The notes under the pieces are model-generated. The model was given only the letters and a program-made list of their open reading frames with translations. It was not told the DNA's origin and did not search any database. The position numbers were made by a program, and so were the translations under genes. Shown in pieces: positions 28,559-34,607 of a stretch of DNA of 64,000 bases. The stretch lies in assembly GCA_913050195.1 (NCBI GenBank), contig CAJXBJ010000002.1, positions 1,818-65,817 of the forward strand, written 5' to 3'. Source of the stretch: an uncultured Saprospirales bacterium. Its GTDB lineage: Bacteria; Bacteroidota; Bacteroidia; Chitinophagales; CAJXBJ01. Numbering within the stretch: the first letter of the stretch is position 1; each line of letters starts with the position of its first letter.

Positions 28559-30328
28559 ATGACATTTAAACGTATCTTTTTTCTTATTGGATGCTCATTA
28601 ATAATGAGTATAAAGTTAAGTGCACAATGCACACCTAACCCTTCCTTATTTACAAATCCAGGAATTGAACCAGATACTATGCCTGTAGGCTATGCAAATA
28701 ATTTTTACGATGAGAATGTCTACTTCATGTTGCCTTTAGATACTCAAGGTTTTGCATACCAAAATATTGAAATTTCTTCTGTGGTTGGTCTTCCAATTGG
28801 AATGAGTTGGGAATGTGATATGGTTGCCAATGGATGTAATTATGTCCCTGCTAACAATCAATATGGATGTATCAGACTTTATGGTACTCCTATACAAACT
28901 GGCAACTTTTCAGCTATAGTAAATATTACGGCAACATTGAGCGTTGGCATATATCCAACAACAATGAGTTCCCCAATTACTATTTTACCAGATACTTCTA
29001 CGGGCGGCGGCTTTAATGCTGATATAACAAATGGATGTTTGCCGGTTACTGTTAATTTCACGAACAATAATCCCGGCTTAATGTACTATGATTGGGACTT
29101 TGGAAATGGGAATGTCTCTAGTTTAGAAAACCCAGGACCTCAAACATATACCCAAGAAGGCGTCTATATTGTAGACTATAAGGCATGGTCTGACACTAAT
29201 TTCTACTATATTTTAAATAGTATTACGATAACTTCTGTTCCAGATCAAAGCAATTATGGAACACTTGTAAATGACTATGATCCTGACCTTTATTTTATTC
29301 TTTATGATAATAATAATGTTCAAATATATCAGAGCGAGGTTATTGATGATACACAACCACCAATAACCTATAGCATACCAAACCTGAATCTTTCAAATGC
29401 TAATTATGAGCTACATCTCTGGGATAAGGACAGTGGTTGGTTTGGACTTGACCCTGATGATGACTTGGGCGTTGTGCCATTCAATGGATATGGAGGGAGT
29501 GGAAGTGCTTCTGCTCCATTTTCTGGAGGAGGAAATACAGCTTTTGATTATAGCGTGACTACAATACCGCCTAATTTCAGCACACAAGCTTCGGACACAA
29601 TTTATGTTCACAGTTACCCTACAAAACCAAATGTAGACTCAATTGGCACTAATTTATCTATTGACTCATCATATTACGCAATGCAATGGTATAAAGATGG
29701 ACAAATAATTGCTGGGGCATCAGACTCCGCTCACACAGCTAGCGGCACTGGTTATTATCACATTGTTGTCAAAAATGAGAATGGGTGTGAGATAGCATCT
29801 GACTCTATATTTATCATAGTATGCAATTACTTCTTCGGAGTAAACATCAATGTCAATGGCAATGTTGTTTGGACAGATTCAACCCAATATAACTTTCAAT
29901 GGTATTATCAAGGAAATCCAATACCTGGAGCAATAAACAATATTTATTTTGCTGATACTTCAGGATATTATTATGTTGTTGCTACAGATTCTTTTGGTTG
30001 TCAAAGTAATTCCAATCCAGTATTTGTTGACATTCCTACTGATACTACAGGAATTTCTGAAATAAGTATTTTAAGCAAACATATTAAAGTATTCCCGAAT
30101 CCTAGCTATGGAGAATTTAATATACACTTTGATATGCCTCTAAGGTCTAAAGATTGTGAAATTGAAATCTATGACCAAAGAGGCCTTTTATTGCAAAAGG
30201 AAACAATGGGTAGGATCTTAATTGATGATGTCAAAAAAATTGATATATCTAATTATCCGACCGGAATCTATGTTCTTAATATAAGGTTAGAAAAAGGGAA
30301 TATTAATAAACGCCTTATCAAGCACTAA
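28559..30328 (+). CDS. Secreted PKD-domain protein with T9SS type-A C-terminal sorting domain
   Basis: Signal peptide from the internal ATG at 28559. PKD motif 'WDFGNGN…GVYIV'. CTD 'VFPNPSYGEFNIHF…GIYVLNI'. Confidence 0.8.
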   Translation: MTFKRIFFLIGCSLIMSIKLSAQCTPNPSLFTNPGIEPDTMPVGYANNFYDENVYFMLPLDTQGFAYQNIEISSVVGLPIGMSWECDMVANGCNYVPANNQYGCIRLYGTPIQTGNFSAIVNITATLSVGIYPTTMSSPITILPDTSTGGGFNADITNGCLPVTVNFTNNNPGLMYYDWDFGNGNVSSLENPGPQTYTQEGVYIVDYKAWSDTNFYYILNSITITSVPDQSNYGTLVNDYDPDLYFILYDNNNVQIYQSEVIDDTQPPITYSIPNLNLSNANYELHLWDKDSGWFGLDPDDDLGVVPFNGYGGSGSASAPFSGGGNTAFDYSVTTIPPNFSTQASDTIYVHSYPTKPNVDSIGTNLSIDSSYYAMQWYKDGQIIAGASDSAHTASGTGYYHIVVKNENGCEIASDSIFIIVCNYFFGVNINVNGNVVWTDSTQYNFQWYYQGNPIPGAINNIYFADTSGYYYVVATDSFGCQSNSNPVFVDIPTDTTGISEISILSKHIKVFPNPSYGEFNIHFDMPLRSKDCEIEIYDQRGLLLQKETMGRILIDDVKKIDISNYPTGIYVLNIRLEKGNINKRLIKH

Positions 30329-33400: not shown

Positions 33401-34607
33401 TTGTCCTTATTAAGATAATCAAGTATAACAATGAGCTTAAAAGAATAGCTAGTACAATATAAAAAGCAAGTGATGTTATAATTGTTAATTCCATAAACCA
33501 ATATGCTATACAGATTGACATAAAGCAACGAATTGCATCTATTTTAAAAGCCCATTTTTTATCCTGCAACAATTTTGAGCAAGACCAAATACTAAATAAT
33601 AAAAATAGACTTCCAGCCATCTGAACATGGCTATTAAATCCTTTGAATTGCATCATAAAAAATGCTGTATAGGCCAATATAAATAAGTATTGAATAAGCG
33701 CATAAATACTTAAATGAAGAGATAATGGAAGGTTATATTTCTTATAGCTAGCTCTATCTATTTTAGAAGGCAGTATTGGACCACCCATATAGTCAGGCAT
33801 CCATCCAGGTTTATTAAAAAGGACTTTAAGCCCATCTAATGGTGATTTCACTTTGACCAATATTTTGGCTAAGCTTTTGAAGTGCGCAAAATTAGCCCAT
33901 ATAGGGTCCCATGAATTTATAGGAATAGTAATCCCATAGGTTGGTCTTTCTTCTTCTTCTTGAAAGGTTCCAAATAGCTTATCCCATATTATAAAAACCC
34001 CTGCATGGTTTTTATCAATATATTTTGGATTTTTCCCGTGATGAACTCGATGATGCGACGGTGTATTAAAAAGTATTTCAAACCATCCCATTTTATCTAT
34101 TGATTCTGTATGTATCCAAAACTGATATAGAGTACCAAAAGCATTGGCTAGCACAAAGTATTTTGGATCAAAACCGATTACAGCCAATGGGAAATAAAAG
34201 AAAAAAGTAAAAAATATTTGAAAACTACTCTGCCTTAAAGCAACAGAAAGATTATAATCTTCACTCTGATGATGAACAACATGTCCACCCCAAAATAAAC
34301 TTACTTCATGGCTCTTTCGGTGAGCCCAGTAATAACACAAATCGACGAGTATAAACAGAATCAAAAAAGTCCACCAGTTATTTGATATTGTCCATATCCT
34401 TAAATACTCGTAAATAAATACATAAACACCTACACTAACTATGGTTAAAAAAAAGCCACTAAGCTGCTGAATGATGCCACAACTTATATTAGTGATTGCA
34501 TCACTAAGACGGTAATGATTATCTTTTTTCCAATGCTGAAACAAAAGCTCTATAACTATCAAGCCAAAAAATACAGGTATTGCTAATATAATTGGTCCCA
34601 TATCCAT
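33390..34607 (-). CDS. Fatty-acid-hydroxylase-superfamily membrane oxygenase, alkylglycerol monooxygenase (AGMO/TMEM195)-like
   Basis: His boxes '[31 protein letters not shown]' and '[34 protein letters not shown]'. As I recall, these mirror animal AGMO more closely than the sterol desaturases. Confidence 0.65.
   Translation of the reverse strand: [405 protein letters not shown]

Follow-up and report, generated by a model that had tools for sequence, protein, structure and literature searches.

Can a bacterium remove ether-linked chains from glycerolipids with a dedicated pair of membrane enzymes? This question is raised by a locus on contig CAJXBJ010000002.1 of an uncultured Saprospirales bacterium (assembly GCA_913050195.1), where a gene resembling animal alkylglycerol monooxygenase (AGMO) overlaps a gene of the YhhN/TMEM86 type and is followed by a gene for a TonB-dependent receptor. 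We analysed a stretch of 64,000 nt of this contig, referred to here as the window, in which all three genes lie on the minus strand. The oxygenase and its YhhN partner may constitute a bacterial ether-lipid cleavage module, a reading based on sequence comparison to which we give about an even chance. Both proteins were members of their respective families, residues defined by mutagenesis were kept, and the pairing of the two genes in a putative operon recurred in other genomes. What we infer beyond this concerns the substrates, whether taken up or the cell's own, the reductant, and any role of the receptor. An earlier note on this DNA had described the three open reading frames (ORFs), the overlap of the first two and the gap before the third, and all of these were read in the sequence as follows:

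33390..34607, minus strand: AGMO-like di-iron membrane monooxygenase, 405 aa, Pfam FA_hydroxylase (PF04116) 3e-28; FA_hydroxylase domain at residues 81-214, four-helix C-terminal region at ~297-403
33390..33400, minus strand: overlap of 11 nt between oxygenase stop and YhhN start, ATGGTACTTAG, read directly
32711..33400, minus strand: YhhN/TMEM86-type putative lysoplasmalogenase, 229 aa, Pfam YhhN (PF07947) 7e-40
32638..32710, minus strand: AT-rich spacer of 73 nt between the YhhN and receptor genes
30325..32637, minus strand: TonB-dependent receptor, 770 aa, with signal peptide and CarboxypepD_reg, Plug and barrel domains

The histidine-box strings that the note had quoted lay within the 405-aa product. 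Because of the Pfam matches to FA_hydroxylase (3e-28), to the full YhhN profile (7e-40) and to the receptor domains (1e-13 to 1e-23), the three genes are real and not chance ORFs. The same arrangement was present with 99% identity on an independent contig from ENA (L081) and also on a partial metagenome contig (L084). A metagenome scan with the oxygenase as query returned 18 contigs, mostly short, whose only new yield was a second copy of the same organism. The GC content of the locus (0.33-0.35) was the same as that of the remainder of the window. The junction between the first two genes reads ...AAATGGTACTTAGGG..., with the ATG of the YhhN gene (33400-33398) located 5' of the TAG of the oxygenase gene (33392-33390), and this overlap of 11 nt suggests translational coupling of the two.

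By sequence comparison the oxygenase belongs to the AGMO family. A human AGMO sequence served solely as search bait, with which real animal AGMOs were retrieved, and the gibbon representative among them was 98% identical to the bait. In BLASTP the window oxygenase showed 37% identity to gibbon AGMO over 393 colinear of its 405 residues (E 8e-83), reaching into the C-terminal helices. Bit scores to animal AGMOs were 226-248, versus 44-59 to the paralogs used for comparison, which were four bacterial FA_hydroxylase proteins from the fetched loci. In these four paralogs the match was limited to the His-box core, the position of human E137 was occupied by His or Ala, and the C-terminal region was missing. 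The impression of the earlier note that the oxygenase tracks animal AGMO over other fatty-acid-hydroxylase enzymes was thus borne out by overall identity, by the residues kept and by the difference in scores.

A residue alignment of the window oxygenase with five animal and five bacterial sequences showed that the eight-histidine di-iron motif (His96, 100, 109, 112, 113, 186, 189 and 190) was invariant with respect to animal AGMOs. The glutamate following the second motif histidine, human E137, was found as E101 within HRKSHE. Six of seven further residues essential in human AGMO were also kept, namely Q162, H201, D233, N235, W243 and D244 as window Q126, H166, D198, N200, W208 and D209, the exception being Y236. 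Mutagenesis of human AGMO had shown these motif and further positions to be essential for activity, and had shown that E137 sets the Km for tetrahydrobiopterin; this glutamate was reported to be absent from other fatty-acid-hydroxylase proteins (PMC3617469).

When 1.84 billion cluster representatives were searched exhaustively by HMMER with the oxygenase, 1,749 clusters matched at E <= 1e-30. The best 150 of these all matched gibbon AGMO, with a median identity of 37%; clusters of animal AGMO type were among them, with identities to the gibbon protein of up to 70%. In a neighbour-joining tree, animal AGMOs were nested among bacterial sequences and distant from the paralog outgroup.

Two other names for the oxygenase were considered and rejected. 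OlsE was its sole NCBIfam match, with 55 bits against a cut-off of 475. Sterol desaturase, the generic name given by NCBI, was not adopted as there were no sterol genes in the window and the similarity to AGMO was far greater. Sequence and profile searches of the PDB with the oxygenase, YhhN and Mpo1-like proteins of the locus gave nothing meaningful. An AlphaFold2 model of the oxygenase (mbf83df79de21) reached a pLDDT of 87.7 and a pTM of 0.87, and a Foldseek search of this model against the PDB returned no match better than E 2.9. Judged from the model, the fold appears to be without a solved representative detectable by Foldseek.

The individual genes are members of known families that automated annotation already recognises: many of these proteins are named alkylglycerol monooxygenase at JGI and sterol desaturase family at NCBI, and a metagenome study of 2026 listed 239 metagenome-assembled genomes (MAGs) with AGMO-annotated genes (PMC13543475). 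In reviews, AGMO is treated as an enzyme of animals and as the sole one known for alkylglycerol cleavage (including PMC3617469). The conserved pairing and its context appear to be undescribed, and no description of an AGMO-like/YhhN pairing was found in the literature searched.

Members of the family also occur on plasmids. On the clinical Pseudomonas aeruginosa plasmid pF076 (L106, 5001-6221), an AGMO-like gene of 35% identity, annotated as sterol desaturase family, is located between transposase genes, and family members can therefore be mobile. Plasmid searches with the oxygenase and lyase queries found distant homologs in different settings, with no bearing on the question asked here.

The second gene had been described as a YhhN/TMEM86-type gene, and this identity stood. 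The YhhN domain was full-length (PF07947, 7e-40, profile positions 1-182 of 182). Mammalian TMEM86B sequences were retrieved with a bait sequence in the same way as for AGMO, and the window protein showed 26-30% identity to them. Eight catalytic residues have been proposed for TMEM86B: K53, G87, D88, H108, G175, S182, D183 and Y206 (PMC11994398). When mapped onto a real macaque TMEM86B sequence, seven of the eight aligned exactly, with window G73, D74, H99, G183, S190, D191 and Y214 corresponding to TMEM86B G87, D88, H108, G175, S182, D183 and Y206. For the eighth, a lysine, window K34 (FTKPLL; motif K-P/C-x-L) lay two columns off TMEM86B K53 in an ambiguous part of the alignment. All YhhN proteins assayed so far, from human, Legionella and Mycobacterium tuberculosis, are lysoplasmalogenases (PMC9052158).

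The pairing of the two genes was then followed across genomes. A scan of one genome per species gave at least 596 genomes in which the oxygenase has a relative; among these listed matches the carriers were mostly Bacteroidota, with further ones in Acidobacteriota, Gemmatimonadota, Myxococcota, Leptospirales and Proteobacteria. All neighbourhood counts given here cover the best 80 of these at least 596 species loci (L001-L080). Ten of the 80 loci encoded a YhhN protein directly 3' of the AGMO-like gene on the same strand, as detected by an iterated profile search, and two proteobacteria had a YhhN gene within ~2 kb of it. The paired genomes belonged to Chryseobacterium, Pedobacter, Flavobacterium, Daejeonella and several MAGs. 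Spacing in several pairs ranged from an overlap of 10 nt to a gap of 7 nt, and most pairs elsewhere were followed by a convergent gene, an arrangement suggestive of a bicistronic unit. Among 108 putative operonic neighbours of AGMO-like genes that were classified by Pfam, YhhN ranked top with 8 occurrences, the next family having 3. If one or two YhhN genes are assumed per several thousand genes, ~0.02-0.04 chance adjacencies would be expected in 80 genomes, versus the 10 seen. The YhhN-linked cases were scattered over several separate branches of the oxygenase tree. This same-strand adjacency at separate places of the tree backs the functional link between oxygenase and YhhN that had been proposed from the window alone.

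The closest YhhN-linked relative, a Bacteroidetes MAG (L013, 8545-13466, plus strand), encoded a lipase-like alpha/beta hydrolase, the AGMO-like protein, the YhhN protein and an aldehyde dehydrogenase in a row, with a thiolase at 16048-17256. Taking the predicted functions at face value, this gene order is the reaction order expected for ether-lipid catabolism.

In the proposed module, two enzymes in the cytoplasmic membrane would remove the sn-1 ether-linked chain from lyso-type glycerolipids. With O2 and a reductant that might be a reduced pterin, the AGMO-like oxygenase would hydroxylate saturated 1-O-alkyl chains at C1', and the hemiacetal so formed would break down, releasing a fatty aldehyde together with glycerol or glycerophospho-X. 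In 1-O-alkenyl lipids (lysoplasmalogens) the vinyl-ether bond would be hydrolysed by the YhhN protein, with products of the same kind. Acting together, the two enzymes might clear membrane-active lyso-ether lipids that resist ordinary esterases and feed the chains into fatty-acid catabolism.

A number of observations weigh against such a module. AGMO is stated in the 2026 study not to be known as functional in bacteria, where the bacterial homologs are described as being of unknown function (PMC13543475), and enzyme activity of any bacterial AGMO homolog was not found in the literature searched. PRUB680 is the sole AGMO-like enzyme of bacteria whose reaction is known, and its substrate is a pyrrole pigment and not an ether lipid (PMC13543475). 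About 68 of the 80 AGMO-like loci had no YhhN gene nearby, and among the matches listed the 12 closest genome relatives, from Cytophagales and others, were without an adjacent one. Several Cytophagales-type genomes instead carried a conserved protein of ~124 aa directly 3' of the AGMO-like gene. This protein, which had no Pfam match, was found in L001, L002, L003, L005, L007, L008, L015, L082 (11214-11582), L104 (2572-2949) and L105 (9240-9614), and is a second, different recurrent partner of the AGMO-like gene. At the level of the protein itself, human Y236 is replaced by His201 in the window oxygenase, as it is by His in 41 of 75 bacterial homologs; in coelacanth AGMO the position is Phe. 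The Pfam model of the AGMO C-terminal domain (PF24858) matched residues 299-370 below threshold (E 0.18, 12.3 bits against a cut-off of 28.3), and was narrowly passed in two close bacterial homologs (28.8 bits). The pterin cofactor adds to this list. Besides folE, the window ORFs of at least 110 aa held no gene for pterin synthesis or recycling, and no pterin-related family was found among the 108 putative operonic neighbours of AGMO-like genes elsewhere. The glutamate equivalent to E137 was replaced in 24 of the 75 bacterial homologs, several YhhN-linked ones included.

The earlier note had reported folE at 2889-3554 and had seen neither 6-pyruvoyl-tetrahydropterin synthase nor sepiapterin reductase in the window, and both statements hold, the second within ORFs of at least 110 aa. 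The folE gene was confirmed by a GTP_cyclohydroI match of 2e-59 and lies 27 kb from the oxygenase gene; folE is a general folate-pathway gene. No domains of 6-pyruvoyl-tetrahydropterin synthase, sepiapterin reductase, pterin carbinolamine dehydratase or aromatic amino-acid hydroxylase were found in the window ORFs of at least 110 aa. The glutamate was kept in the window oxygenase and in 51 of 75 bacterial homologs in the alignment of L001-L080. Where it was replaced, several Myxococcota had Arg, and several of the YhhN-linked proteins had Gln, Val or Gly; the replacement in 24 of 75 may be a sign that the family uses more than one reductant. From these sequences pterin dependence is plausible for the window oxygenase and would not be general to the family.

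How do other explanations of the pair compare? The AGMO-family enzyme might tailor a lipid of the cell's own envelope or a secondary metabolite, with the YhhN protein acting on a non-plasmalogen substrate, so that the two would serve endogenous remodelling. We regard this as rather unlikely. It has precedents in PRUB680, acting on prodigiosin, and OlsE, acting on ornithine lipids; PRUB680 shows that a different chemistry can arise within the bacterial branch. In Cytophagales the AGMO-like gene adjoins gyrB/parE-type genes, that is, housekeeping-type surroundings, and the pterin-associated glutamate is not universal. OlsE is the only NCBIfam match of the window protein, but at 55 bits it falls far from the cut-off of 475. 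Further points against remodelling are that the window oxygenase keeps this glutamate and nearly all residues essential in human AGMO, and that its recurrent partner comes from a family whose tested members are all lysoplasmalogenases. The lipase-like hydrolase, aldehyde dehydrogenase and thiolase in L013 point to catabolism instead, and no prodigiosin or sterol genes were found in the window. A different explanation, that adjacency is without functional meaning and two unrelated membrane-protein genes overlap by chance, each working alone, would fit the roughly 68 of 80 loci without a nearby YhhN gene, and also the fact that the YhhN enzymes of Legionella and M. tuberculosis were described without an oxygenase partner. 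Against it stand the ten adjacencies, far above the number expected with an assumed one or two YhhN genes per genome, their position on several branches of the oxygenase tree, and spacings of -10 to +7 nt, which indicate coupling. Chance is accordingly very improbable in our view.

The remaining alternative extends the unit to the receptor. The earlier note had proposed that both enzymes are co-transcribed with an outer-membrane importer; the enzyme pair was found to be conserved, and the linkage to the receptor was not. In this proposal one transcription unit would include the TonB-dependent receptor, which would import exogenous ether lipids or their lyso forms for both enzymes. The receptor gene lies on the same strand after a gap of 73 nt, the identical arrangement was present on the independent contig of the same organism, and Bacteroidota often place receptors next to catabolic genes. 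No terminator-like hairpin and no exact Bacteroidetes -7 motif (TAnnTTTG) were found in the 73-nt spacer. Because the spacer lacked both a terminator-like hairpin and a clear promoter motif, co-transcription of the receptor with the pair is possible but unsupported. Upstream of the genes of the locus the exact -7 motif was likewise missing, save for one occurrence far from the start of the gene for an endonuclease/exonuclease/phosphatase-family (EEP) protein, and a sigma-70 scan gave fewer promoter-like sites than shuffled controls, none of them informative. The receptor was recognised by Plug (8.5e-13), TonB_dep_Rec_b-barrel (1.5e-23) and CarboxypepD_reg domains, with a 22-strand-type barrel and a signal-peptide N-terminus (MRLLCILMLITVLPVWGQ). 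All of its matches to NCBIfam substrate-class models (SusC/RagA, siderophore, haem, B12) fell far below cut-off, with 88 bits against 368 for SusC/RagA, covering the N-terminal 215 residues only, and 56 against 600 for BtuB. No SusD-like partner was found beside it, and an Rfam scan of the whole window gave zero matches and hence no riboswitch hint for the receptor. A relative of the receptor was found within 10 kb in none of the 12 other YhhN-linked loci and in only five of the 80 AGMO-like loci, at varying distance and strand. The pair is mostly bicistronic elsewhere, ending at a convergent gene, and TonB-dependent uptake is not an established route for lipids, FadL-type channels being the known one. 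Taken together, we consider a single unit with an importing receptor improbable, and the receptor is probably independent of the oxygenase-YhhN pair.

Upstream of the pair, genes that were absent from the earlier note widen the picture. They are arranged as follows:

34608..34692, no strand: divergent intergenic region of 85 nt separating the AGMO-like gene from the Mpo1-like gene, presumed to hold the promoters of both
34693..35193, plus strand: Mpo1-like (DUF962) membrane protein, 166 aa, Pfam Mpo1-like 1.8e-20, divergent from the oxygenase
35249..36766, minus strand: sphingosine-1-phosphate (S1P) lyase homolog, 505 aa, from PDB sequence search
36768..38372, minus strand: FGGY-family kinase, 534 aa, Pfam FGGY_N and FGGY_C, ends 1 nt before the lyase start

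In the divergent intergenic region only one-mismatch candidates for the Bacteroidetes promoter motif were found. The best PDB match of the lyase homolog was the S1P lyase of Symbiobacterium (3MAD, 9e-166, residues 13-505), followed by human SGPL1 (4Q6R, 1e-125) and yeast Dpl1 (3MC6, 3e-117), with decarboxylases at 1e-30 or weaker. The FGGY kinase scored 293 bits against a cut-off of 380 for the NCBIfam model XylB, and its best PDB match was a xylulokinase (1.5e-40). Yeast degrades phytosphingosine via a 2-hydroxy fatty acid in a pathway to which both S1P lyase and Mpo1 belong. L102, the nearest further relative found, has the lyase, Mpo1-like and AGMO-like genes in the same order (82%, 75% and 62% identity, respectively), with the Mpo1-like and AGMO-like genes divergent as well; this organism is so close that synteny alone proves little. 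When the S1P lyase, Mpo1-like, FGGY, PHP-family phosphatase and EEP proteins were compared by BLAST with the 80 genome loci, no conserved association with AGMO-like genes was found, and the wider island is therefore specific to one lineage (the window, L081 and L102).

Beyond the FGGY kinase gene, 158 nt upstream of it, the window encodes on the minus strand (38531-40428) a HisJ-type PHP-family phosphatase that overlaps the EEP protein by 4 nt. For the EEP protein there was no informative relative among solved structures and no tie to sphingomyelinases was found.

Four eukaryotic membrane enzymes with roles in making or processing long-chain aldehydes thus have homologs at this one locus, which is suggestive from the sequence comparisons but lineage-specific. 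One might read the whole region as an island that dismantles eukaryote-type membrane lipids by means of an AGMO ortholog, a lysoplasmalogenase, an FGGY kinase with S1P lyase, an Mpo1-like dioxygenase and an importing receptor, and we consider this reading doubtful. The AGMO ortholog, pterin-dependent or otherwise reduced, and the lysoplasmalogenase would then cleave alkyl and alkenyl ether lipids, the FGGY-type kinase and S1P lyase would cleave sphingoid bases, the Mpo1-like dioxygenase would shorten the resulting 2-hydroxy acids, and the TonB-dependent receptor would bring the lyso-lipids in. If true, the island would hold the first bacterial AGMO with activity, together with a sphingoid-base kinase of non-canonical type and a TonB-dependent receptor that imports lipids.

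The two-gene module itself also has consequences. A bacterial ortholog with catalytic and cofactor-linked residues that is coupled to a lysoplasmalogenase predicts bacterial ether-lipid catabolism and, if true, would explain the recycling of abundant marine and soil ether lipids. Such an ortholog might also be a more tractable protein for work on the structure and mechanism of AGMO, where the question would be which reductant replaces tetrahydrobiopterin.

Other parts of the window offered observations of their own. At 6749-9837 (minus strand), the small subunit of a ribonucleotide reductase carried an N-terminal ATP-cone and the adjacent large subunit had none, which reverses the usual placement. 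Reductive degradation of pyrimidines is suggested by an operon-like row of four genes at 21586-26608 (plus strand), whose products are an amidohydrolase, a carbon-nitrogen hydrolase and two subunits resembling dihydropyrimidine dehydrogenase (Fer4_20/Pyr_redox_2 and DHO_dh/Fer4_21). Many large proteins of the PKD, SprB or FG-GAP kind, which carry sorting domains for type IX secretion (CHU_C or Por_Secre_tail), were encoded at 627-2522, 28529-30328, 40431-43337 and 54817-63270. These proteins and the GC content of ~34% place the organism in gliding-type Bacteroidota.

The locus can be compared with several known systems. With SusC/SusD-type polysaccharide utilisation loci it shares a CarboxypepD_reg receptor next to catabolic genes on the same strand; it differs in having no SusD-like partner and a weak SusC/RagA match, in a presumed substrate that would be a lipid and not a glycan, and in a linkage that is not conserved. 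The eukaryotic sphingoid-base route, in which SGPL1 or Dpl1 acts before alpha-oxidation by Mpo1, is mirrored by the S1P lyase homolog and Mpo1-like protein encoded directly upstream of the pair; as with AGMO and TMEM86, both correspond to membrane enzymes of eukaryotes that produce or handle long-chain aldehydes and their 2-hydroxy acids. The window kinase is however FGGY-type and not a sphingosine kinase resembling diacylglycerol kinase, and the grouping was seen only in the window, L081 and L102. PRUB680 of Pseudoalteromonas rubra is an AGMO-like membrane di-iron oxygenase that cyclises prodigiosin (PMC13543475); prodiginine genes were not found in the window.

Closest to the first gene is animal AGMO/TMEM195 (EC 1.14.16.5), with which the window oxygenase shares the family, the domain order, 34-37% identity over almost the full length and an aligned C-terminal multi-helix region. 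It is ~40 residues shorter at the N-terminus, has His in place of Y236 and matches PF24858 below threshold. The host is a bacterium with no known tetrahydrobiopterin pathway in view, and, unlike in animals, the gene stands in a putative operon with a lysoplasmalogenase homolog. The second gene shares with the YhhN lysoplasmalogenases TMEM86A/B, Legionella Lpg1991 and M. tuberculosis Rv1401 the same full-length domain, an eight-helix-type architecture, and the active-site Gly-Asp, His, Gly, Ser-Asp and Tyr, with the Lys two columns off. The characterised bacterial members belong to intracellular pathogens and have been discussed as a defence against host lysolipids (PMC9052158). Unlike the Legionella and M. 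tuberculosis proteins, the window YhhN protein is encoded by a free-living marine-type member of the Bacteroidota, where its gene is coupled to that of an AGMO-like oxygenase.

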